A DNA stretch of 64,000 nucleotides from an uncultured Candidatus Saccharimonas sp. (lineage in GTDB: Bacteria > Patescibacteriota > Saccharimonadia > Saccharimonadales > AQU-01): NCBI GenBank assembly GCA_943358095.1, contig CALRGT010000003.1, positions 6,169-70,168 on the forward strand. Direction: 5' to 3'. Below are positions 25,791 through 58,687 of the stretch, piece after piece; within the stretch, counting starts at the first letter, position 1, and the number at the start of each line of letters is the position of its first letter. The notes below the pieces were generated by a model, which was not told the origin of the DNA, did not search any database, and worked only from the letters and a program-made list of their open reading frames with translations. The translations under genes and the position numbers were made by a program.

Positions 25791-25877
25791 GGTAGTCGAC
25801 ACGCATCTTTGGCACATTTTCGGCGAACTATTATTTGATGGAATCGTTTTTCCTAGTTCCCTAAAAGGGGCTATTTA

Positions 25878-26097
25878 GCCACTTTTGATTCGGCAAAAGT
25901 GGCGCAAAACCGAGGGGCGGTGGCCACAACTCGATATAGCTTCCTAACAAGGAGCACAACACAGCCTGCGGAACTAGCTGCTTCGCAGCGTCAGACAGTC
26001 CTCGGCAGGAAGTGTTGTTGTGCTCTTGTAGGAATCTATCTCGGGTTGCACCCAGGCCCCACATAAGCCCATGGATGCCCGCTGGAGGCGGGCTATT
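25878..26097 (+). ncRNA. candidate structured RNA / palindromic repeat element, copy 1 (unclassified)
   Basis: 10-bp hairpin GCCACTTTTG/CAAAAGTGGC, then a long imperfect rod helix. Ends in terminator GCCCGC-tggag-GCGGGC + TATT. Paralogous to complement(28400..28621) with paired substitutions. Confidence 0.45.
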
Positions 26098-26143: not shown

Positions 26144-26680
26144 ATGTCAGTAGATAAATCACGTAATTTTGAATTAGAAATAGATGAAAATCTAAAACTC
26201 CGTCAGTTAATTCCCGACGAAGCCAATTTAATATTTAGTATTGTGGATAGTGAAAGAGAGTATTTAGGTAAGTGGTTGCCGTGGGTCAAAACAACCCAAA
26301 CACCAGAAGATTCTAAAGATTTTATTGAAAGTATTATAGAAAAGCGACAAGAAGGCTCAGAATTTGGTTTTGGAATAATCGTCAATGACCAGCCAAAAGG
26401 CCATATAAGCTTAATGCATGTTAGTGATGGCAAAGGGCCAGAAATCGGTTATTGGATATCAAGCCAGGAATCAGGCAAGGGCATAACTAGTAAAGCGGCT
26501 AAAACGGTCACCGAATTTGGTTTTAAGACATTAGGTCTAGATAAAATAACAATTCGAGCCGACCACAGAAATATAGCTAGCAACAAAGTCGCCGAAAAGT
26601 TGGGCTATATCCTGACGGGTCAAGAGTATGCGGGCACGGAAACTGCAATGAATGTTTGGGAAAAGACTAAACCTATATAA
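26144..26680 (+). CDS. GNAT family N-acetyltransferase (RimJ/RimL-like)
   Basis: 178 aa; acetyl-CoA motif region GKGITSKAAKTVTEFGF and C-terminal N..A..VAEKLGY. Confidence 0.85.
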   Translation: MSVDKSRNFELEIDENLKLRQLIPDEANLIFSIVDSEREYLGKWLPWVKTTQTPEDSKDFIESIIEKRQEGSEFGFGIIVNDQPKGHISLMHVSDGKGPEIGYWISSQESGKGITSKAAKTVTEFGFKTLGLDKITIRADHRNIASNKVAEKLGYILTGQEYAGTETAMNVWEKTKPI

Positions 26681-26690
26681 GACCATGGAT

Positions 26691-26713
26691 GCCCGCTGGA
26701 GGCGGGCTATTTT
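26691..26713 (+). terminator. intrinsic terminator after GNAT gene (third copy of the repeat's terminator module)
   Basis: GCCCGC-tggag-GCGGGC + TATTTT. The ~35 nt AAGACCATGGATGCCCGCTGGAGGCGGGCTATT are shared with 26063-26097 and complement(28400-28436). Confidence 0.8.
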
Positions 26714-26730: not shown

Positions 26731-27510
26731 TTAGTTTTTGGAGCTGAGTGTACCTAGGACTATTATCCAGGCCAATAACGATTTAGCGATTAGGCTGAGC
26801 CAAACATAGGCGCGCTCGCCGTATGCATAGTCCTTCCATTTGCCGATCTTTTTGTACTGTAACCACATGTTGACAGCAAAAGTATTGAACAGTAAGAACG
26901 TTAACAAAAAGCCGAGCTTGGCGTACCACGGTATAGAATCGGCTATATTGCTAGTACTTGCCCAGAAGTATATGCCACCGATTATCCAAGGTACGATGCC
27001 AGCAATAATACCTATATTAAACGGGAACCATGATGTTTTCTTGGTTAGTTGATTGTAACGTTCCATTTCTAGACCCCAGATGTTCATAAGGAAATTAAGA
27101 GTAAAAACAAAAACTACGCTCGGCAACTCGTTTAATCCACCCATCATAAGTAGGACGGTAATCATCAGTGATGAACTGATGGAGTATTCCAGCCAGCGCA
27201 TAGGGTTTATGCCTTTTTTGATATTGGCTTCATAGCGGCGATAGTACATTGGTGAGGCTACGAAAAGATGAAAAAAGGCTGCAACTAGCAGAAATAGTGG
27301 ACCAACAACTGCTATAGGTATATCAACAAGTATCTTGGTCGCAAAAGTGAAGTCACCATCAGGAGCCACATCAAAAAAGCGAGTAATAATAGGTATCTTG
27401 AGCGAATAGTTCAAAATTATGAGCATTATCGTCGCCTGCAAAAGATGCACGGAACCCATAATAATATTAAATCGTCGAAGTTTTTTGGTCTGGTTGTTTT
27501 TAAATATCAT
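26731..27510 (-). CDS. heliorhodopsin
   Basis: 7 TM. Recalled heliorhodopsin 48C12 motifs are all present: FNxxxGxVHLLQ, MRWLEYSISSSLMI, GIIAGIVPWI, GERAYVWLSLIAKSLLAW (Schiff-base Lys). Confidence 0.9.
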   Translation of the reverse strand: MIFKNNQTKKLRRFNIIMGSVHLLQATIMLIILNYSLKIPIITRFFDVAPDGDFTFATKILVDIPIAVVGPLFLLVAAFFHLFVASPMYYRRYEANIKKGINPMRWLEYSISSSLMITVLLMMGGLNELPSVVFVFTLNFLMNIWGLEMERYNQLTKKTSWFPFNIGIIAGIVPWIIGGIYFWASTSNIADSIPWYAKLGFLLTFLLFNTFAVNMWLQYKKIGKWKDYAYGERAYVWLSLIAKSLLAWIIVLGTLSSKN

Positions 27511-27518
27511 ATAAATAA

Positions 27519-27546
27519 ATTATAGCATAAGCACAATGCCGTCAAA
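27519..27546 (-). promoter_or_regulatory. sigma70-type promoter of heliorhodopsin, near-leaderless
   Basis: Minus strand has TTTGAC(G), a 16-nt spacer, then TATAAT. Only 8 nt lie between the -10 box and the ATG. Confidence 0.6.
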
Positions 27547-27554
27547 CCCTTCCT

Positions 27555-27580
27555 GCCACTTTTGCCGAATCAAAAGTGGC
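27555..27580. repeat. third copy of the 26-nt hairpin GCCACTTTTG-6 nt-CAAAAGTGGC
   Basis: Same hairpin as at 25878-25903 and 28596-28621. Here it sits immediately upstream of the heliorhodopsin -35 box. Confidence 0.8.
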
Positions 27581-27674: not shown

Positions 27675-27959
27675 ATGAGCGATATTAACTTCTGCCCACA
27701 TTGCGGTCACGACTTAGCGATGTATCAAAATAACGATTACTCTACTGCAGACAACACAGAGGATGAAAATCTTTTAATAGCTGTAAAATGCGTAATAGAG
27801 GCCAATAAAGCGTCGACATCACTGCTTCAAAGAAAGATGAGGATCGGTTACGGTATGGCAGCGCGTTTGATAGAGACGATGGAAGAACGGGGCTATATAG
27901 GGCCTGCTATTGACTCTAAACCACGAGATGTACTAATAGATAGTATTGATCGAATGTAA
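27675..27959 (+). CDS. zinc-ribbon + stand-alone FtsK gamma (winged-helix) domain protein
   Basis: N-terminal CPHCGH. The C-terminal [32 protein letters not shown] matches the FtsK/SpoIIIE gamma domain. Confidence 0.8.
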
Positions 27960-27963
27960 TGGT

Positions 27964-28401
27964 ATGAATATTTACCTAGATATTGACGGAGTGATAGTCG
28001 CGAATGATAATAACGCAGCTAATTATGCTGCGGAGTTTATTGAGTACGTATTAAATAAGTTCCCAGACACAACCTACTGGCTGACTACTCATTGTCAAGG
28101 TGACGCAAGTCAACCGATTAAGGACATTGGTCATTTGTTTGATGCCAAAACCATTGATTATATGAAGATGATTAAACCGACAACTTGGTTAGACTCACCA
28201 AATAAAACATCGGCTATAGATTTTAGCCAACCCTTTTTATGGTTTGACGACGACTGTTTTGACGGCGAGAGGCAAGAGTTAATCAAGAACAATGCACTAG
28301 ATAATTGGATAGAAGTTGACTTAAGTAAAGATCCAGACCAACTGCTAAAATTCATAACCAGTTTTCCGATTGCTTCTGAAATGGCACAAGAAGGCTCATA
28401 A
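27964..28401 (+). CDS. hypothetical protein, HAD-like N-terminal motif
   Basis: MNIYLDIDGVIV resembles HAD motif I (DxDGV). The rest is unrecognised. The ORF track's start at 27946 overlaps the upstream gene. Confidence 0.5.
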   Translation: MNIYLDIDGVIVANDNNAANYAAEFIEYVLNKFPDTTYWLTTHCQGDASQPIKDIGHLFDAKTIDYMKMIKPTTWLDSPNKTSAIDFSQPFLWFDDDCFDGERQELIKNNALDNWIEVDLSKDPDQLLKFITSFPIASEMAQEGS

Positions 28402-28621
28402 AAAATAGCCCGCCTCCAGCGGGCATCCATGGTCTTATGTGGGGCCTGGACGCGACCCGAAATAGATTCCTACAAAAAGACAACAAACTACTCCCCGAGG
28501 ACTGTTTGAAGTCCGATAGGACAAGTTCCGGAGGGCGTGTTGTCCTTTTTGTTAGGAAGCTATATCGAGTTGTGGCCACTGCCCCTCGGTTTTGCGCCAC
28601 TTTTGCCGAATCAAAAGTGGC
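28400..28621 (-). ncRNA. candidate structured RNA / palindromic repeat element, copy 2 (unclassified)
   Basis: The reverse complement aligns over its full length with 25878-26097: the first 73 nt have 1 difference, the last 72 nt about 5, and the central 75 nt are diverged but still fold. Minus-strand terminator + TTTTTT at 28400-28424. Confidence 0.45.
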
Positions 28622-28750
28622 ATAAATAAACTCCGCATCTGCGGAGTAAAAATAACTATATATAAGAAAAAAACGTTAGAAAATATCATAGACTGTAAGA
28701 AACGTGGCATAATCCGCAAAAAGCGCAATTGCGAGCCAGCAAGCCAGCAG

Positions 28751-32041: not shown

Positions 32042-32422
32042 ATGAAGTTTATTAAGCCAGTTTATGCACATTGTGATTTGCCTTGTGGGGTTTACGATCC
32101 TGCTCAAGCTCGAATCGAAGCAGAGTCTTGCCATATGATAATGACAAAATATGCAGATTTGCACAGCGAAGAAGACAAATGGCGAGCAGTATTTATCAAA
32201 GAAGAGCGTGCCGACATGGTCAAGAACCATCTATGGGTGTTGTGGACCGATTATTTTAAGCCTGAACATCTAGCTAAGTTTCCTGATTTGCACGATTTAT
32301 TTTGGCGAGCTACAAAGCAAGCTGGCAGCGTCAAGAAGTCTGTCGACCCGGCCGAAGGTCAAAAGTTGCTAGACCTAATTGCTGAGATTACTGATATTTT
32401 TCAACAACCCAAAAAAGCTTAA
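32042..32422 (+). CDS. sodN: nickel-dependent superoxide dismutase precursor
   Basis: Leader MKFIKPVYA followed by the Ni-hook HCDLPCGVYDP. SD GAGGG upstream of ATG 32042. Confidence 0.9.
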   Translation: MKFIKPVYAHCDLPCGVYDPAQARIEAESCHMIMTKYADLHSEEDKWRAVFIKEERADMVKNHLWVLWTDYFKPEHLAKFPDLHDLFWRATKQAGSVKKSVDPAEGQKLLDLIAEITDIFQQPKKA

Positions 32423-32428
32423 TTTTTA

Positions 32429-32728
32429 ATGAATTTACCGCTAATGATACGACAAGTGCGTGGTGCTAGCATGGAGCCGTCACTTCCTGCTGGTAAGTAT
32501 GTGTTTGCTATAAGGCGAGTTCGCCCAAAAAGTGGGCAAATAGTAATTGTGCTACACAATAACGTAGAGAAGATTAAGCGAATCAACGAAGTTGACGGCG
32601 CTCATGTGTTTTTGCTGGGAGACAATCCAGCAGAGAGTAATGACAGTCGGGATTTTGGACTTGTGCTATCTAATACAATTATCGCTACTGTAATTTGGCC
32701 TAGACGTAATCTGGCGAGTTCTCTGTAG
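32429..32728 (+). CDS. sodX: S26-family NiSOD maturation peptidase
   Basis: GASMEPSLPAG serine motif, GDNPAESNDSRDFG box. Immediately downstream of sodN. Confidence 0.8.
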   Translation: MNLPLMIRQVRGASMEPSLPAGKYVFAIRRVRPKSGQIVIVLHNNVEKIKRINEVDGAHVFLLGDNPAESNDSRDFGLVLSNTIIATVIWPRRNLASSL

Positions 32729-41711: not shown

Positions 41712-43115
41712 CTAATTAACTGTGTAGTTAGAGGCGCTTAGCTCATTTTGAGTTTGATTCCATCTTAGACGTTCTAGAATCATATTATATGTTCGTTGGT
41801 TTGATGGCTTGGTTGTTTTGTTGGATGTTTGGACGCCTATTACACTAAATTTAAACTTGAAGGGTAATAGCCCAAGATTGCTTGTTTTAATTTGATCAAA
41901 ACAATCATCGTGAAAGGAAGCACATCTTTCTCCCAAGCTAACCCATGACTGTAGCATAGTTTCTGTTTCCGGGCTTTGATCAATACTCATTGTTAAGCTT
42001 ATAGCTGCTGAACGAGTTACTTCCTCGCTGAACTGCTGGTCAAATATAAAGTTACCCATAGAGTAGGCGATTAATTTTCCTTTATACACTTCTGTTGGCT
42101 GCACCCAATGTGGATGATTGCCGAGCACTATATCTGCACCATAATCTATCATCTTATGGTACAGAGCCTGTCTCTCTGCGTCTACAACAGAACTGTATTC
42201 AACACCCATATGAGGCATGACAATAACTGGCATATATTTTGCATATAATTTGATAGGCTCTAGGTCCTTGTCTTTTATTTTGTAATTCACGCCAGCAAAA
42301 CCACACATTGCTACTGGGATTTTTACTTCCTTCTGTGTGTCATCCAGGCGCACCCTAGCAGGAATCGCTATGACCTCGCAAGCATCGGTGCTTATACTCG
42401 GATCAAAATGTCCAAAATATTGAATTGCGTAATCGTCCAGTGCTTTTCTAGTTGCGAGTAGTCCTTCTTCGTCTTTGTAGTTATTGGTGTGGTTGTTAGC
42501 GAGCGAGAACACATTGAACCATTTAGATGCCTCTGAAAGATACGATACAGGGCAGTTAAATATCAATTTCTCTTTCTCATCTTTAATTGATGCTTGCACT
42601 CCTGGAACTGAAGGACATTCAAGGTTAGCTACCCACGCATCGTAGCTGTCTTTTTTGAACTCGCCTAAATGTCTAAAGGGGTAGGCTTCTTTTAATGAGG
42701 TTTCTTGCGCCCACTTGTTTAGATTCCGTCCCCAGTAAACGTCGCCCGCAAATAGAACTCTACTTTCTAGAATTGTTGATTCCGGAAGTTTGGTCGAGTA
42801 GTCCTCCATCCGAATGGCATGACTACGTAGAGAAATGTTTACAGCAAGTCCAAGGCCAATCATGGCCAGCACCACCATACAGAGTATATTTTTGCGTTCA
42901 TCTTCTGTATATCGTTTATTGTAGCGTGCTCTACTTTTCTTTGCTTTGAACTTCAATAGAATAATTTTATTTCGCTTAATCTTATTAGCATTACGAATTA
43001 CTTTACGAATTCGATTAATGCGAAACTTCAATACCTTTAATCTTCTCTTAATAAGTCTTCGAGATTTTTTCGTAAGAAGTGCCATATTAATTACTTTCCT
43101 TTTCAGGATGCCCAA
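41712..43115 (-). CDS. capA: CapA/PgsA family poly-gamma-glutamate synthesis protein (metallophosphatase fold) with highly basic N-terminal extension
   Basis: VANLECP, SLANNHTN, LGNHPHW and YSMGNFIFDQ motifs. About 70 aa Lys/Arg-rich N-terminus, then a TM. Confidence 0.85.
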   Translation of the reverse strand: MGILKRKVINMALLTKKSRRLIKRRLKVLKFRINRIRKVIRNANKIKRNKIILLKFKAKKSRARYNKRYTEDERKNILCMVVLAMIGLGLAVNISLRSHAIRMEDYSTKLPESTILESRVLFAGDVYWGRNLNKWAQETSLKEAYPFRHLGEFKKDSYDAWVANLECPSVPGVQASIKDEKEKLIFNCPVSYLSEASKWFNVFSLANNHTNNYKDEEGLLATRKALDDYAIQYFGHFDPSISTDACEVIAIPARVRLDDTQKEVKIPVAMCGFAGVNYKIKDKDLEPIKLYAKYMPVIVMPHMGVEYSSVVDAERQALYHKMIDYGADIVLGNHPHWVQPTEVYKGKLIAYSMGNFIFDQQFSEEVTRSAAISLTMSIDQSPETETMLQSWVSLGERCASFHDDCFDQIKTSNLGLLPFKFKFSVIGVQTSNKTTKPSNQRTYNMILERLRWNQTQNELSASNYTVN

Positions 43116-43770
43116 AACCTAGAAATCCGTAATTCTGTACAAATGAAAAATTCCGGTATTTCACTCCACCATTCAAATTGCCGCCAATCATACCGGCTCT
43201 TCCGATTTCATCGCCAACGTCTACGACAATATCTACGTGCCCAAGATTATCTTCATAATCGCCGCGCCAGAATATAACAAAATCACCAATTTCTGGCTGA
43301 AGTCCTTTCTGTGTTATCTCTGCGCTGTCGTGCCACGTACCATGTTCCTTTAGATATTCTGTGAACTTACGAGAATTTGTTATTCGCCAATTTTGAGTTA
43401 AATTATCTGCTACTGGCGATCCTGCCTTCATAGTAACCCAGCTCGCAAACATGGTGCACCATTGTGAATGATAACCCTGCGTGTACATGTCGACCTGGGG
43501 TCCGCTATTAGATCCCATAGGAGATTCAAGGACGTTTTTTCTGAACTCCTGCATAGCAATATCAGCCCGTTTTATGCCATAAAATTCTTTTGGTTTTACT
43601 TCAGCCTTGGCTGTCTCTAATAATTGTTTTTGGATTTTTATTTCTGGCTGCGCTGCGACGTCAAAAAATAGGTCCTTGTAGCCAAAGTATGTATAGAACG
43701 TAACTGTAAACAAGACTAATCCAATTCGCACAAAGACTCTTTTATTAATGAAATTAAATTTAATGCGCAT
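43087..43770 (-). CDS. CHAP domain amidase/peptidase
   Basis: N-terminal TM. Catalytic Cys context QWCTMFASWV and His context LGHVDIVV. Confidence 0.7.
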   Translation of the reverse strand: MRIKFNFINKRVFVRIGLVLFTVTFYTYFGYKDLFFDVAAQPEIKIQKQLLETAKAEVKPKEFYGIKRADIAMQEFRKNVLESPMGSNSGPQVDMYTQGYHSQWCTMFASWVTMKAGSPVADNLTQNWRITNSRKFTEYLKEHGTWHDSAEITQKGLQPEIGDFVIFWRGDYEDNLGHVDIVVDVGDEIGRAGMIGGNLNGGVKYRNFSFVQNYGFLGFGHPEKESN

Positions 43771-44977
43771 GATTTTTCTCTAAGAATTTTAATAGCGCTT
43801 GAGATTGCTTGGTGTGGATATTAACAGACCCTAATAGCAAAAACTCGTCCTCTACAATAGCTTTTGATATAACTTTAAGAAGCTTTGTTCCTGCTAGTTC
43901 TGAGTGCATGCTCTCGTTCCCCATACTTACAACCACGACATTCTTGTTTTTACGTTTGCGAGTTAATTTTGCAACTTCCTTAATGACATTTTTTTCATAA
44001 TCACCGAATGCGAAGATATAGTCAGCGCCAATTGATTTGACTGCAATATTCGCAAATTGTGATACTCGATCAGGTCTATCGTGCCTATTGTTTAGAATTA
44101 CGGCTCTGATAGTCTTGTCGCCTACTTTAGTGCGCAAGGCTTTAGACGTCATTATGAAACTTTCTGAATCGTTAATAGCAAAAAGATTTGCCCAATGTAT
44201 AGTCTTTTTGTGTTTAATTATTTTCTTTAGCGCAAAGGCACCAGGATCAGGTTGTGCTTTATGCATGCCATTTAGAGCCGTGCTTCGCTTTATGCCAGTT
44301 AGTTGCGCTACTTTTATTGCTATAGCGACATTCGACTTATACTCAAAGTGATCAAACATAGACATTTGTTTATCGCCAATTCTCATACTCCCTACGGCAT
44401 GAAATTTTGTATTACGTCTCTTGCACTCTTTACGAAGAATCGTAAGAAGTTTAGGGTTTGTTTCCGCTGTAATTAAATGGCCATTTTTGGGTATAGTTGC
44501 ACATAGACTTCTGGCAATTTCCGGCAAGGTTTGCCCAAGCATATCCATATGATCTTCTCTAATATTCGTAATGACACCAATAGTTGAGTGCATGATTTTT
44601 TCTTCAAGATACTTCTGGTATATCGGGTTAATTGCCATGCATTCAAAAACAATAGCTCTGTATCCTTGGCCTTTGTACATGTCTATAATTTGTTTTTGTT
44701 CTGCAATATCTGCTTCTGTTCTCGGTATTTCCATATCTTTGCGATGTCCTATTACTAGGCGGGCAGCTGAGCCAGTAGTTTTACCAAGAGTATTGATTCC
44801 ACCCTCTCTTAGCGAGGCTGCAATTAATCGGGTAACCGTAGACTTACCGCGAATGCCGTTAACGTGAATTCGATGTTCAAACTCTTTTAAAACTAAGTGC
44901 GAATGCTTACGCTCTATTAGAACGCTGTTCGTAATATATATTGCAAATAATATGGCAATTACAATCGGAATATACAT
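43760..44977 (-). CDS. capB: poly-gamma-glutamate synthase CapB/PgsB (Mur ligase family)
   Basis: HVNGIRGKSTVTRLIAA, ECMAINP, NIREDHMDMLG, PDPGAF and NNRHDRPDRVSQFA closely follow recalled B. subtilis PgsB. Confidence 0.9.
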   Translation of the reverse strand: MYIPIVIAILFAIYITNSVLIERKHSHLVLKEFEHRIHVNGIRGKSTVTRLIAASLREGGINTLGKTTGSAARLVIGHRKDMEIPRTEADIAEQKQIIDMYKGQGYRAIVFECMAINPIYQKYLEEKIMHSTIGVITNIREDHMDMLGQTLPEIARSLCATIPKNGHLITAETNPKLLTILRKECKRRNTKFHAVGSMRIGDKQMSMFDHFEYKSNVAIAIKVAQLTGIKRSTALNGMHKAQPDPGAFALKKIIKHKKTIHWANLFAINDSESFIMTSKALRTKVGDKTIRAVILNNRHDRPDRVSQFANIAVKSIGADYIFAFGDYEKNVIKEVAKLTRKRKNKNVVVVSMGNESMHSELAGTKLLKVISKAIVEDEFLLLGSVNIHTKQSQALLKFLEKNHAH

Positions 44978-44979
44978 GA

Positions 44980-45942
44980 CTACACCGCCAATCTTGCTAT
45001 GTATGCTAATAGAAGGGAAGGAAACACGCCTTTAATCAGAGATTCACGGACAGGCTGCAAACAAAGCTCGTTCGTTAATACGGCGACAGCAATAATGGCA
45101 ATAGTCGGTGATGGATGATATTTATTCATGTGTACAGCTAGAGCGGTATAATCTAGTATAGAAATCGTCAGATAGCCCATAACTAGACTGGCTACAAACC
45201 TTTCCAGCCCAATAATCAGCGTGTATTTTTGGATAAGTTTCATAGCCCAGAAACTAATTACTACGGCTATGGATATGCACATCGCTTGCAGTGGCGCGAT
45301 AAATATTAGAAGAGCAAGAAATGGACCGATCACATATCCACCACCACGAATACCGAAGCGATAATAGATCAAGGCTGCAGTAATTAAACTTATAGGTATC
45401 ACAATAAATGGAGCAGTCAATGTTAGCGGTGTGTATTGAGCCAATTGAACGTTTAATGAGGTGAGGTCATGTTTTGGAATCACAGACGCCAATATCACAC
45501 CTGCCGACCCAGTTAGCGCAGTAACAAGTAATGTTGAAGTAATAATTCGCGACTTGCCATATTTATGAGCGCTAATAGTAATAAGTCCTGGTATGACAAG
45601 ACTAACGATTGAAGATTCTATATAAGCATTTCCGTAAGTTCTAAAAACGTACATCGTGATAAGTCCAAGAAGTGTAGATATGGACATGCAGATAATGGTA
45701 ATCCAACGACTACTAAGTGCGTGCTTGGACACAAATATGCGATAAATAGTCCAGCATATAACAGTAGAAATAAGTAAAACAATAAAGGATTTAAAGCTGA
45801 CGAATAACGTTCCTGCCAAGATTCCAGGTACGATAATACCGCCTGGTGTTACCCCATACTTTTTTTTATAAAGTATTGAGATAATTGCTCCCAGTAGAAA
45901 TAGAATGCGAATAAGTTCGATCGAACTGTCTAATATCTCCAC
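44980..45942 (-). CDS. capC: CapC/PgsC-like membrane protein, apparently duplicated (about twice the usual length)
   Basis: 320 aa. GVTPGGIIVPGILAG and SLVIPGLIT resemble PgsC GIVPAGLVVPGYLA / GIIVPGLIAN. Its stop lies 2 nt before the capB start. Confidence 0.7.
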   Translation of the reverse strand: MEILDSSIELIRILFLLGAIISILYKKKYGVTPGGIIVPGILAGTLFVSFKSFIVLLISTVICWTIYRIFVSKHALSSRWITIICMSISTLLGLITMYVFRTYGNAYIESSIVSLVIPGLITISAHKYGKSRIITSTLLVTALTGSAGVILASVIPKHDLTSLNVQLAQYTPLTLTAPFIVIPISLITAALIYYRFGIRGGGYVIGPFLALLIFIAPLQAMCISIAVVISFWAMKLIQKYTLIIGLERFVASLVMGYLTISILDYTALAVHMNKYHPSPTIAIIAVAVLTNELCLQPVRESLIKGVFPSLLLAYIARLAV

Positions 45943-47436: not shown

Positions 47437-48003
47437 ATGGCAATTGAAACACCGAAGTATAAAGTTTTAGAAAAAAATGGGCATATTGAGCTAAGAAAAT
47501 ATGACGGCTATATAACAGCAAATGTAGAAATTAAAGCCGATAGCTATAAATCTGCCGGCAGTATGGCATTTAGAGTTTTGGCCGATTATATATTTGGGAA
47601 TAATACGAAAAATACAAAGATAGCTATGACTGCTCCTGTAATTAGCCAAAAACCTGCTACTTCAGAAAAGATAGCAATGACTGCTCCTGTAACTACGGCT
47701 AAACTTGACGATCAAAAGTACGTTATTTCATTTACAATGCCAGCAAGTTTTACGTTAAAGGATTTACCTAAGCCCAATAATGACAATGTAATTATTAAAA
47801 GTTTGCCTGCGCACGAAGTAGTTGCTATTGAATTTTCGGGGTACACATCAGAAGGTGATATTGAGAAGAAGTCCGCTGAACTCAGGGAGTGGGCTAATAA
47901 AAAACAAATTAAGCTAGCCAATCAGCCGTCTGTACTAAGATATGATCCACCATGGAAGCCAGGATTTATACGACGAAACGAAGTCTGTTTTAGTGTCGTC
48001 TAG
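47437..48003 (+). CDS. SOUL heme-binding family protein
   Basis: IETPKYKVLEK...IELRKY N-terminus, repeated IAMTAPV motif, C-terminal YDPPW....RRNEV. Confidence 0.85.
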   Translation: MAIETPKYKVLEKNGHIELRKYDGYITANVEIKADSYKSAGSMAFRVLADYIFGNNTKNTKIAMTAPVISQKPATSEKIAMTAPVTTAKLDDQKYVISFTMPASFTLKDLPKPNNDNVIIKSLPAHEVVAIEFSGYTSEGDIEKKSAELREWANKKQIKLANQPSVLRYDPPWKPGFIRRNEVCFSVV

Positions 48004-48028
48004 ATTAGTATGCCGCTGTGCTCGTGGA

Positions 48029-48433
48029 TTATCTATTTAAATAAGTAATCCCAAGCTGCACGGTGGTCGCGAATGCGCCCCAAACAAGATAAGGGATATT
48101 TGCATAGCTGACCCATCTGAGTTCGGGAGCTTTTAGCCAAACTGCTAAGAGTGCCCATATAAGTGTGGCTACTATGAGTAATATATCTATAGACGCAAGT
48201 AAATTATTCGCCAAACCGAATTGTATGTATGTAAAGGCAAAGTTGAAAATAAGATTAAGAGCAAAGGGCAAAGCAACCACCCTCGGAATTAGCTTTTTAT
48301 ATGCACTGTAAAAAACCACACTATAGGAAACTGCAATTATCACATACAAAAACGGCCATACGAGACCGATTACCCACGACGGTGGTGTCCATGACGGCTT
48401 AATGTACTGTGAGTATAGTGCTCTTCCATCCAT
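48029..48433 (-). CDS. tspO: TspO/MBR tryptophan-rich sensory protein
   Basis: 134 aa, 5 TM. KPSWTPPSWVIGLVWPFLY and the aromatic-rich C-terminus are typical of TspO. Confidence 0.85.
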   Translation of the reverse strand: MDGRALYSQYIKPSWTPPSWVIGLVWPFLYVIIAVSYSVVFYSAYKKLIPRVVALPFALNLIFNFAFTYIQFGLANNLLASIDILLIVATLIWALLAVWLKAPELRWVSYANIPYLVWGAFATTVQLGITYLNR

Positions 48434-49402: not shown

Positions 49403-49494
49403 AAAATATAAAGAGTGTAGCGAGGGTTCTAGCCCAATGACCTACCGGCAACCTACTAATTAATAGCAAGGTGCTCCATCTAGTCCGTAGTTAT
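49403..49494 (+). promoter_or_regulatory. SAM-I-type riboswitch aptamer upstream of metK
   Basis: The conserved core is readable: AAGAG-tgtagc-GAGGG-ttct-AGCCC-aatGA-cctaCCGGCAACC-...-GGTGCT. The P4 region looks short. Confidence 0.75.
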
Positions 49495-49495
49495 T

Positions 49496-50668
49496 ATGGA
49501 AACGATATTTTGCCAAAACATATCCTTTCCATATATTCACGGGGAAGGATATTTTATTTCAAACTCTACAAAAACAACACTATTTACTAGTGAATCAGTT
49601 GCCGCAGGGCATCCAGACAAAATCTGTGACGCCATAAGTGATGCAATTCTTGACGCAGCCTTAGCGCAAGATCCAAAAACGAGAGCCGGTATTGAGGCGG
49701 TTGCTGGCGCAAATCAGATCAGCCTATTTGGTGAAATTACCACTACCGCCAAACTAGACTATGAGGCGATTGTTCGAGAAGTTATTAAATCTCAAGGTTA
49801 CATTGAGCCAAAGTGGGGCTTTTCTGAAGAGTCAAAGTTCACAAGTTATTTACATCAACAATCGCCAGAGATATCGCAGGGCGTTGACCAAGATGGGGCT
49901 GGCGATCAAGGAATGATGTTTGGTTATGCCTGTAACGAAACCCCAGAACTTATGCCGATGCCGATTACTTTGGCACATGCTTTAGCGCGTAGAATCGACG
50001 AAGTCCGTCAGAAAAAAATACTCGATTATATCCGACCCGACGGCAAGGCGCAGGTTACTGTCGTCTACGAAGATGGCATACCTACTGCTATAGCTAACGC
50101 CGTTATTGCAGTAGCACATTCCGAGCAAGTTAGCGCCGATCAAGTTCGTGCTGGAGTTATTGCTGAGATTATTACCCCAGTTTTAGCTAAATATGGCTTC
50201 ACAGTGAGCGACGAAAATATAACTGTAAATGGCACAGGCTTATGGCATATACCAGGTCCAGAATCAGACGCAGGATTAACTGGTAGAAAAATTGTAGTAG
50301 ATACATATGGTGGTTACGCTCGTGTTGGAGGAGGCGCCTTTAGCGGTAAAGATCCGAGCAAGGTGGACCGTTCTGGCGCTTATGCGGCACGATATATTGC
50401 TAAAAATATTGTTGCTGCCGGTCTAGCGGATAAATGTGAGGTTGGTCTGGCATATGTAATTGGTAAGCCGAATCCTTTAATGCAAACAATTGAAACATTT
50501 GGAACTAGTAAAGTTTCTGACAAAGAACTTTACGACTTCAAAGATAAATTGATAGATACTTCGGTACGAGGAATAGTCGAAAAATTGCAGCTACTTAGGC
50601 CGATTTATTCTGCGACAAGCGCATATGGACATTTTGGTAAGCCAGAATTGCCGTGGGAGCAGGGGTAG
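49496..50668 (+). CDS. metK: S-adenosylmethionine synthetase
   Basis: LFTSESVAAGHPDKICD, GAGDQGMMFGYA and GGGAFSGKDPSKVDRS motifs. The ORF-track ATG 49496 lies inside the riboswitch platform. The conserved N-terminus is better served by ATT at 49556 (see findings). Confidence 0.95.
   Translation: METIFCQNISFPYIHGEGYFISNSTKTTLFTSESVAAGHPDKICDAISDAILDAALAQDPKTRAGIEAVAGANQISLFGEITTTAKLDYEAIVREVIKSQGYIEPKWGFSEESKFTSYLHQQSPEISQGVDQDGAGDQGMMFGYACNETPELMPMPITLAHALARRIDEVRQKKILDYIRPDGKAQVTVVYEDGIPTAIANAVIAVAHSEQVSADQVRAGVIAEIITPVLAKYGFTVSDENITVNGTGLWHIPGPESDAGLTGRKIVVDTYGGYARVGGGAFSGKDPSKVDRSGAYAARYIAKNIVAAGLADKCEVGLAYVIGKPNPLMQTIETFGTSKVSDKELYDFKDKLIDTSVRGIVEKLQLLRPIYSATSAYGHFGKPELPWEQG
49520..49559 (+). 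terminator. riboswitch expression-platform hairpin (terminator/SD sequestrator)
   Basis: 11-bp stem ATATCCTTTCC / GGGAAGGATAT followed by TTTTATTT. The 3' arm contains the GGAAGGA Shine-Dalgarno. Confidence 0.7.
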
Positions 50669-57883: not shown

Positions 57884-58231
57884 CTAGGATTCTTTATCAA
57901 ATCTTATATAGTCCAGCTCTCTTGGAGTTAGTCCACCCCAGATTCCATCTTGTTGAACTGTGTCGATTGCGTAATTTTTGCAATCTATTCGTACATCACA
58001 TTGGTTGCAAATATATTTGGCGGCTCTTTCTCGGGTAATTCTTTGAGAGTTAGTCTCTACTTTTATTATTAACGGTTTGGAAGTTTGTGGCGTTTCATTT
58101 TCTGGAATGGAAAGTTCTGTGTAGGCGACTTTTGAATAAAATAATTCTGTTTGTCCCTTACAACTGGCGTACTTAACCCAAGACCTACCAGGCCCTTCGC
58201 GGTAATAATCAAGTATCGAGTCCTCTCTCAT
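57884..58231 (-). CDS. WhiB-like (Wbl) iron-sulfur transcription factor
   Basis: Cys pattern C-x(n)-CNQC-x5-C followed by GIWGGLTPRE. Start taken at MRED (a GTG at 58255 is also possible). Confidence 0.75.
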   Translation of the reverse strand: MREDSILDYYREGPGRSWVKYASCKGQTELFYSKVAYTELSIPENETPQTSKPLIIKVETNSQRITRERAAKYICNQCDVRIDCKNYAIDTVQQDGIWGGLTPRELDYIRFDKES

Positions 58232-58279
58232 CCAATAGATGGTATCACTAATCACCAGATTCTAGTATGGATAGATTTG

Positions 58280-58579
58280 CTATCTAATTCTTATTCGACC
58301 TTTGACTGGTGAGGGGAAGCCCCTGCGTAGTCGTTCGAGTTCATTAAGTCCAGCCCAGATGCCGTATTCTTCGTTCTTTGATGACTGTTCTAGGCATTGC
58401 TCTATTACAGGACAGCTGGCGCACATATTCCTTGCGATAGTCTCGCGGCGTTCTCTCGCTTTTGAGCTTTCGTTGTAAGGTGAATAAAACTTATCAGTCA
58501 TACCACGACAAGCTGCCTGGCCTATCCAGCCTTGCACAGCATCAGGATTATTTAGTTTTTCTTCAATTTTCTCTCTCAT
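58280..58579 (-). CDS. WhiB-like (Wbl) iron-sulfur transcription factor
   Basis: AACRG...CASCPVIEQC...GIWAGLNELER. Start at MREK (58579) is supported by a TTGCAC-17-TATAAT promoter 9 nt upstream. Confidence 0.8.
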   Translation of the reverse strand: MREKIEEKLNNPDAVQGWIGQAACRGMTDKFYSPYNESSKARERRETIARNMCASCPVIEQCLEQSSKNEEYGIWAGLNELERLRRGFPSPVKGRIRIR

Positions 58580-58588
58580 CGGATAATA

Positions 58589-58624
58589 ATTATAAAACAA
58601 TAAAGTAATTCGTGCAATATTGCA
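58589..58624 (-). promoter_or_regulatory. near-consensus promoter with overlapping 12-bp palindrome upstream of the WhiB-like pair
   Basis: Minus strand has TTGCAC, a 17-nt spacer, then TATAAT. The perfect palindrome TGCAATATTGCA (58613-58624) overlaps the -35 box. The ATG lies 9 nt after the -10 box. Confidence 0.6.
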
Positions 58625-58687
58625 TGGCACGGCCCATAAACAACAGAGGGCTACTAATTTACAAGTAAACATGGTATAATAGTATTA

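Follow-up and report, generated by a model that had tools for sequence, protein, structure and literature searches.

What does a heliorhodopsin do in a bacterium with a reduced genome, how is its gene expressed, and where might its retinal come from? These questions are raised by a stretch of 64,000 nucleotides from an uncultured Candidatus Saccharimonas sp. (GenBank assembly GCA_943358095.1, contig CALRGT010000003.1, positions 6,169 to 70,168; the whole of this stretch is hereafter called the window), in which a minus-strand gene at 26731..27510 encodes a protein of 259 amino acids from an ATG start. We analyzed this gene by Pfam profile (PF18761), Protein Data Bank matches, an AlphaFold2 model, a map of key residues, and the ratio of nonsynonymous to synonymous substitution rates (dN/dS), and we compared its surroundings with those of related loci, which are designated here by L numbers. 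We think it likely that the gene specifies a functional bacterial heliorhodopsin that would draw its retinal from outside the cell, would play a sensory or regulatory role, would be translated from a leaderless mRNA, and sits as a constant unit in a locus whose other cassettes vary.

The Pfam Heliorhodopsin family (PF18761) was matched end to end, with residues 11-255 aligned to positions 1-242 of the 242-position profile at 273 bits (E 2.6e-81), against a curated cut-off of 26.7 bits, and the only strong matches among solved structures were heliorhodopsins, namely TaHeR (6is6, E 6.7e-54) and 48C12 (6su3, E 4.4e-47). The start codon at 27510 is secure because an in-frame TAA lies 4 codons 5' of the ATG, within the -10 box, making a longer N-terminus impossible, and because the next candidate, M18, would cut away residues 8-17, a segment that has aligned counterparts in TaHeR and in every homologue. 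A sequence-only reading of this DNA had named the protein a heliorhodopsin from four motifs, and the profile, sequence, solved-structure, and predicted-fold comparisons all agree with that identity. The four motifs are present and aligned with reference residues: H22 (in VHLLQ) with H23 of 48C12, H81 (in FFHLFV) with H80 of 48C12, E108 (in RWLEYSISSS) with E107 of 48C12 and E108 of TaHeR, and S239 and K243 (in SLIAKSLLAW) with S237 and K241 of 48C12, K243 also aligning with K238 of TaHeR. A misaligned lysine or glutamate would have spoken against the assignment, and both K243 and E108 fall exactly on the reference residues. One detail of that reading needed correction, since H81 had been assigned to the third transmembrane helix and belongs to helix 2 (model helix 66-85). 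The retinal lysine is set in an SxxxK motif (S239-L-I-A-K243) of TM7, unlike the DxxxK of type-1 rhodopsins, and E108 is the single glutamate counterion, in TM3. The key residues thus comprise H22, H81, R105, the counterion E108, and S239/K243 at the Schiff base; among 31 relatives, H81, E108, S239, and K243 are invariant and H22 is nearly so. Further, the 48C12 structure paper names 17 conserved polar residues, and the window protein has 15 of them unchanged.

The AlphaFold2 model, built on the 31 relatives, has a mean predicted local distance difference test (pLDDT) score of 83 and shows seven long helices, with a long beta-hairpin (strands 38-48 and 54-65) between the first and second. Foldseek returned TM-scores of 0.83-0.86 to 6is6 and 6su3 versus at most 0.63 to type-1 rhodopsins. 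On the model loops, 15 lysines and arginines lie on the predicted cytoplasmic side versus 4 outside, a count that fits the predicted inverted topology with a cytoplasmic N-terminus. Taken together, sequence and model identify the window gene as a genuine, intact heliorhodopsin.

Is the gene still in use? Judging from its intact frame, the retention of every key residue, and a dN/dS of 0.04-0.06 versus three species, the gene is under selection. These values bear on the idea that the gene, once acquired horizontally from Actinobacteria, is now a decaying relic of no use to a cell that does not synthesize retinal. Such a relic would be in keeping with the nearest relatives outside the Candidate Phyla Radiation (CPR) being freshwater Actinobacteria (60-66% identity), with the position of the gene in a variable, island-like locus, and with the lack of a retinal pathway across the 64 kb. 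Against decay, in addition to the frame, the residues, and the low dN/dS, stand an identical protein encoded on 14 public contigs from different samples and a clade that is widespread in Saccharimonadia, and we regard the relic idea as scarcely credible. Two types of heliorhodopsin were resolved in Saccharibacteria by a neighbour-joining tree of 75 sequences, which carries no support values and is indicative only. In this tree the type of the window is sister to heliorhodopsins of freshwater Actinobacteria (Planktophila, Nanopelagicus, Aquiluna, and Rhodoluna), to which the 60-66% identity given above applies, and the second type is CPR/Chloroflexi-like, common to Dojkabacteria and WWE3, and 40-46% identical. 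Both types occur in one metagenome-assembled genome (MAG), at L072 and L073 on contig CALRAM010000001.1. Transfer of heliorhodopsin between Actinobacteria and their presumed epibionts, in either direction, is plausible from these relationships.

We then considered how the gene is expressed. Read on the minus strand, the upstream region consists of a -35-like hexamer TTGACG (27545..27540), a 15-nt spacer, the extended -10 element TGCTATAAT (27519..27527; TG-C-TATAAT, with TATAAT at 27524-27519), 8 nt reading TTATTTAT, and the ATG at 27510. The sequence-only reading had described the promoter as TTTGAC, 16 nt, and TATAAT; its TATAAT and the 8-nt gap to the ATG stand, and its TTTGAC (27546-27541) lies one base off the register of the TTGACA consensus, the actual hexamer being TTGACG with a 15-nt spacer. 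A promoter scan that allowed 16-18-nt spacers did not list the site because the true spacer is 15 nt. No Shine-Dalgarno sequence is present in the 8 nt between box and start, a distance that falls within the ~5-9 nt expected of a leaderless bacterial mRNA. The box is conserved upstream of orthologues, the pattern TTATGCTA[AT]AAT occurring in 8 of 11 related Saccharibacteria loci, and its TGn-extended form is kept across species while the surrounding sequence is not. In the sub-clade of the window (L009, L010, and L072; 84-85% protein identity), the box ends 5-8 nt before an ATG, and in deeper relatives (L012/L013, L014/L016, L015, L022, and L024; 67-70% identity) it stands 24-34 nt before the start codon. 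A GGAG-type Shine-Dalgarno sequence is clear in L015, L022, and L024, with only a weak AGGG in L012/L013 and at most a doubtful GGGA far upstream in L014/L016. In L021, L022, and L024, which are leadered, the start is TTG, accompanied by AGGAG. Leaderless mRNAs require an AUG start, and the genes with short -10 spacing all begin with ATG. This pattern of spacing is as expected if the leader had been lost in one lineage.

From this comparison, the heliorhodopsin mRNA is probably leaderless, and the short-leader or leaderless message that had been proposed from the promoter position is backed by the upstream regions of other species. Expression would start from the extended -10 element, with transcription beginning at the AUG or 1-2 nt before it, and the leaderless mRNA would be translated without a Shine-Dalgarno sequence. 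An alternative is that transcription starts further upstream, that an A/U-rich stretch permits initiation independent of a Shine-Dalgarno sequence, and that the TATAAT is incidental. The -35-like TTGACG lends this some weight, as it is kept among strains and not in other species and, with a 15-nt spacer, is suboptimal and weak; the region is also AT-rich, and a -10-like hexamer stands at this distance before 4% of internal ATGs. The conservation of the TGn-extended box amid unconserved surroundings argues the other way, as do the box-to-ATG distance of 5-8 nt in four species (that of the window included), a 9-fold enrichment of the motif at gene starts, and the little space that the upstream hairpin and divergent genes leave for another promoter, with an intergenic gap of only 34 nt in L010. 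On balance we find an incidental TATAAT doubtful, and we retain the leaderless message as the more probable.

Leaderless-type promoters are a common trait of this genome and not peculiar to the heliorhodopsin gene. Among the 69 genes of the window, a TGn-extended -10 element ending 4-10 nt before the start was identified at 9, versus 1.4% of internal ATGs, and a match of at least 5 of 6 positions to TATAAT at that distance was identified at 11, versus 4.1% of internal ATGs, while a motif resembling a Shine-Dalgarno sequence was present at only 21. The window contains 11 perfect copies of TGNTATAAT, where 4.9 would be expected and 1 of 100 shuffles reached 11, and 3 of these 11 sites lie 7-8 nt from an ATG. 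Examples of leaderless-type starts include 23771 (minus strand), 58688 (plus), 26144 (plus), 27675 (plus), and 30364 (minus), and the GNAT and FtsK-gamma genes beside the heliorhodopsin gene likewise look leaderless. These counts suggest that leaderless or non-Shine-Dalgarno initiation is widespread in this Saccharimonadales lineage; our literature search found nothing specific on leaderless translation in Saccharibacteria.

Could the neighbours of the gene reveal its function? The GNAT and FtsK-gamma genes had been offered as possibly conserved neighbours. We searched by tblastn for ten window neighbours (nusB, NUDIX, rnc, GNAT, FtsK-gamma, a 151-aa open reading frame [ORF], rpsP, KH, a 191-aa ORF, and trmD) across 80 heliorhodopsin loci, and outside this species none of them was found within 6 kb of an orthologue. 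Further, GNAT and FtsK-gamma are gained and lost between strains with identical heliorhodopsin, and, because the locus is polymorphic within the species around an identical gene, we rejected them as functional clues. The order in the window is rnc, repeat, GNAT, heliorhodopsin, hairpin, FtsK-gamma, 145-aa gene, repeat, and rpsP. The GNAT acetyltransferase gene (26144..26680, plus strand; RimJ/RimL-type, Pfam Acetyltransf_3) is a cassette that varies between strains; it is enclosed by 40-nt direct repeats that correspond to the 3' end of a ~225-nt element, and L002, L004, and L007 have the identical heliorhodopsin without this gene. On the other side, the gene for a Zn-ribbon and FtsK-gamma protein (27675-27959, plus; Pfam), the gene for a 145-aa protein without a Pfam match (27964-28401, plus), and the repeat copy at 28404..28625 make up a unit of 1041 bp that has identical 30-nt direct repeats of the hairpin at its two ends. 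Other strains carry a 6-10-kb type I restriction-modification island (fused HsdM/S, HsdR, RadC, and a 216-aa gene) between the heliorhodopsin and FtsK-gamma genes, and further strains have an extra 208-aa gene between two repeat copies. The heliorhodopsin gene with its promoter is thus the constant unit of the rnc-rpsP locus, in which other cassettes are gained and lost between repeat copies.

Two other genes recur beside the orthologue in sister species. In 4 of 14 Saccharibacteria loci (L010:1282-1647, L072:5599-5928, L014:5145-5468, and L015:5155-5478), a gene for a KcsA-like K+ channel of 107-121 aa (PF07885, with a TTVGYGD filter) lies just upstream of the orthologue and diverges from it, the 34-nt gap mentioned for L010 being that between channel and heliorhodopsin genes. 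A SOUL haem-binding gene adjoins the orthologue in 3 of 14 (L011, L012, and L024). In the window, neither gene adjoins the heliorhodopsin gene. The recurrent divergent K+ channel of the sister species is a candidate partner for heliorhodopsin.

Where the chromophore comes from was addressed through Pfam annotation of the whole window, combining precomputed hits for 16.7-64 kb with a direct scan of the remaining ORFs. No beta-carotene dioxygenase (blh), phytoene synthase or desaturase, or lycopene cyclase was identified in the 64 kb, which confirms at the Pfam level that the window holds no blh or crt gene. Since the dN/dS of 0.04-0.06 indicates that the protein is in use, and retinal genes are lacking from the window, an external source of the chromophore is implied. 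Supply by a partner organism, as the sequence-only reading had suggested, fits the hypothesis published for Saccharibacteria: rhodopsin-bearing members lack blh, retinal from Nanopelagicales hosts has been proposed, and co-occurring Nanopelagicales carry blh (Jaffe et al. 2022). In the mechanism that we propose, the cell would make no retinal and would take it up from outside through the lateral fenestration formed by F164, G171, F208, N209, and A212, the probable source being rhodopsin- and blh-bearing Actinobacteria. From the alignments, K243 would bind all-trans-retinal as a Schiff base whose counterion is E108, and S239, S112, H22, and H81 would hold the retinal in place. Light would then drive a slow photocycle without net ion transport, and the Lys/Arg-rich cytoplasmic loops could signal to a partner protein in a regulatory or sensory role. 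Such a role has precedents in the pairing of AbHeR with glutamine synthetase and of TfHeR with photolyase, and it is backed by published context analysis.

Some observations weigh against this reading. S76 of 48C12 is A77 in the window protein, which deprives the counterion of one hydrogen-bond partner, and Q213 of 48C12 is M215, although methionine at this position is described as a frequent variant in the 48C12 structure paper. The weak -35-like element has been given above. The scan for retinal genes covered 64 kb of a genome of roughly 1.1 Mb, and the Pfam lists of the window contain none of the partners, or types of partner, published for heliorhodopsins (glutamine synthetase, photolyase, and histidine kinases). 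Finally, a 2025 preprint presents heliorhodopsins as carotenoid-antenna light harvesters and not as sensors.

The model of that preprint, in which the main role would be light harvesting with a second, exogenous carotenoid bound at the fenestration, finds its proposed carotenoid motif in the window protein: aromatic residues at 162/206 (F164 and F208), G169 (G171), N207 (N209), and a small residue at 210 (A212). An episymbiont on carotenoid-producing Actinobacteria would also have xanthophylls at hand. Against this, the model rests on docking and motif statistics in a preprint without a demonstrated output function, position 166 is Ile in the window protein versus Cys in 48C12, and harvested energy would have no known sink without ion transport. 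We therefore regard a primary antenna role as unlikely. Still less likely is a light-gated or light-driven ion transporter akin to subfamily 2, the proton transporters among viral heliorhodopsins. Ion transport by some heliorhodopsins is on record in the cited literature, the extracellular half is hydrophobic save for the polar Thr204, whose counterpart in subfamily 2 is Glu, and the small K+ channel gene beside the orthologue in 4 of 14 related loci makes a link to ion flux possible. The window protein nevertheless retains the cytoplasmic cavity residues of the 48C12 type, the Pro174 bulge, and the fenestration motif, the last two of which subfamily 2 lacks; it groups with bacterial freshwater heliorhodopsins in the neighbour-joining tree; and transport has been seen for neither 48C12 nor TaHeR. 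We thus favour a heliorhodopsin that would sense light with retinal obtained from outside.

What, then, moves the cassettes around this constant unit? The ~225-nt repeat is present in the window as two full copies, A (25873..26097, plus strand) and B (28404..28625, minus; inverted relative to A and 87% identical), which bracket four genes including that for heliorhodopsin. Each comprises a 5' hairpin, an imperfect hairpin of ~150 nt, and a terminator-like hairpin. A copy of the 3' end alone (26672..26713, plus; GC hairpin at 26691-26707 and a T-run) is the terminator of the GNAT gene and the sole hairpin downstream of the convergent heliorhodopsin gene. Upstream of the latter, 9 nt from the -35-like box, lies a perfect 10-6-10 hairpin (27555..27580; GCCACTTTTG-N6-CAAAAGTGGC) identical to the 5' hairpin of the repeat. 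We identified the repeat also at L002, L005, L006, L113, L139, and L148. As RNA, it is predicted to fold into a perfect 10-bp hairpin (GCCACUUUUG-AUUCGG-CAAAAGUGGC, with a UUCG-type loop) followed by (G)CAAAACC, the ~150-nt imperfect hairpin, and a GC hairpin with a U-run, at a minimum free energy of -102 kcal/mol (z = -6.4). Compensatory changes occur at five pairs among four copies, and the apical stem of variants is entirely different in sequence and still complementary. Homology between strain variants upstream of the heliorhodopsin gene stops inside the 5' hairpin, where the 6-nt loop is inverted between variants and the promoter-side arm is constant.

We compared the repeat with known element classes. 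Rfam gave no match at E<=1 in the window region and only chance-level matches at E<=10 in L002 and L122. The variant CAGGAAGCAGCCAAG bears a passing resemblance to a motif of signal recognition particle RNA, without Rfam support. An integron attC site is one imperfect hairpin, 57-141 nt long, that is shut by the complementary boxes R'' (RYYYAAC) and R' (GTTRRRY) and has an integron integrase in its vicinity. The ~225-nt structure consists of three serial hairpins, inspection by eye showed no such pair of boxes closing it, and no integrase or other recombinase family was identified by Pfam among the genes of the 64-kb window. A Xer/dif site was rejected on account of hairpin arms unlike dif, and a miniature inverted-repeat transposable element with terminal inverted repeats was rejected on account of element ends that are not mutual inverted repeats. 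Given a 6-nt loop that is inverted with respect to the constant flank on the heliorhodopsin side, simple exchange at the hairpin by a tyrosine recombinase likewise does not fit. The repeat had no match in plasmid and viral collections, and a literature search with the hairpin sequence returned primers only.

A metagenome scan with the hairpin stems identified 47 GC-rich contigs of unrelated sediment and soil bacteria that carry a 33-nt core (GCCACTTTTG-TTTCGG-CAAAAGTGGC-CAAAACC). In these GC-rich copies, the core is followed by a long hairpin in an element of ~190 nt (L091-L190; for example, L122:5436-6900 and L111:1100-1700), and in an alignment of 14 of them, 14 of 46 predicted pairs covary. 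Some are arrayed as element, small genes, and element, with genes that by eye are toxin-antitoxin-like. Homology of the whole repeat across phyla was considered and set aside: homology beyond the 33-nt core is not established because a covariance model of the 14 GC-rich copies recognized only the 26-nt hairpin in the window. Separately, a GC-richer CPR-like contig that likewise has the rpmF-nusB-rnc and rpsP-KH-trmD genes carries a hairpin with the same 10-bp stems (L114:1462-1493 and L135:4226-4257), which stands 6 nt upstream of the rpmF start and on the strand opposite to rpmF.

The simplest reading of the locus is that, in a naturally competent organism, the repeats serve as portable stretches of homology through which recombination adds and removes cassettes. 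More speculative is the proposal that heliorhodopsin is a unit of an undescribed cross-phylum cassette-exchange system, the repeat being either a site of recombination or an RNA with a guide or structural role, analogous to attC and unrelated to it; we hold this only tentatively and doubt that it will prove correct. If it were true, light sensing would be among the traits shuffled by a cassette system between Saccharibacteria strains.

Other genes of the window were annotated as well. A SOUL haem-binding gene adjoins a TspO/MBR gene (tetrapyrrole-binding; 47437-48433) in this reduced genome. A cluster with PGA_cap, CHAP, Mur_ligase_M, and Caps_synth_CapC (41712-45942) resembles poly-gamma-glutamate capsule synthesis (capBCA-like). 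Further, we identified a Ni-superoxide dismutase gene with an adjoining S24/S26-type peptidase gene (32042-32728), two adjoining genes of the WhiB family, an actinobacterial-type regulator (57884-58672), and an S-adenosylmethionine (SAM) riboswitch 5' of metK (49403-49511).

How much of this was known before? The host is a freshwater Saccharimonadales bacterium of the MAG lineage f__UBA10212, and contig k141_1915700 of ENA ERZ27280309 is the counterpart of the window. In the supplement of Chiriac et al. (2022, Microbiome 10:84), the MAG RH-23may17-197, which holds a gene 99% identical to the window heliorhodopsin, has a GC content of 41.6% and is assigned to Patescibacteria; Saccharimonadia; Saccharimonadales; f__UBA10212. 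MAGs of this lineage were screened for rhodopsins in that study, which reported heliorhodopsins in Saccharimonadia (n=80) and SLIAK among the commonest lysine motifs of heliorhodopsins. Saccharibacteria are taken as monoderm-like in the cited literature. The presence of heliorhodopsin in freshwater Saccharibacteria, the SLIAK motif, and host-derived retinal are all known already, and the central claims on the window gene are in the literature because of Chiriac et al. (2022) and Jaffe et al. (2022). The heliorhodopsin itself therefore adds little, its lineage having been screened and dependence on host retinal having been proposed before. As a short, clean, probably leaderless unit in a ~1-Mb genome, it is a good candidate for the question of heliorhodopsin function because such a genome holds few possible partner proteins. 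The variable locus and its unclassified repeat might reveal how reduced genomes exchange accessory genes, and these are the only parts that we think may merit further work.

We finally compared the window gene with known systems. The Saccharimonadia heliorhodopsins of Chiriac et al. (2022) share lineage and data set with it, and that study includes no analysis of the promoter, the leader, or the locus at strain level, nor any mention of the flanking repeat. TaHeR (Thermoplasmatales archaeon SG8-52-1, 6IS6) is 40% identical over the full length, with TM-scores of 0.83/0.86, and its E108, K238, and H23 are aligned exactly with the window protein. TaHeR likewise has no retinal pathway, and its retinal enters through the fenestration, but its host is archaeal and its region of extracellular loop 3 is 5 residues shorter than that of the window protein. 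HeR-48C12, from an actinobacterial fosmid of Lake Kinneret (6SU3/6UH3), is 39% identical and agrees with the window protein in the Pro bulge, in the fenestration residues, and in all but two of the 17 conserved polar residues, the exceptions being S76 and Q213, which are Ala and Met in the latter. AbHeR of the Actinobacteria bacterium IMCC26103 belongs to the freshwater actinobacterial group whose heliorhodopsins are sister to the clade of the window; it binds and activates glutamine synthetase via positively charged intracellular loops, and such loops are present in the window protein alike. AbHeR is encoded in an operon with glutamine synthetase by a host that makes retinal (crtEBIY and blh), whereas the window gene has no glutamine synthetase gene, operon partner, or retinal genes within the window. 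The proton-pumping type-1 rhodopsins of Saccharibacteria (SacR; Jaffe et al. 2022) share phylum, habitat, and a proposed need for external retinal with the window protein. No SacR-type rhodopsin was identified within the 64-kb window, and SacR belongs to an unrelated rhodopsin family (PF01036), has the opposite topology, and pumps protons outward.

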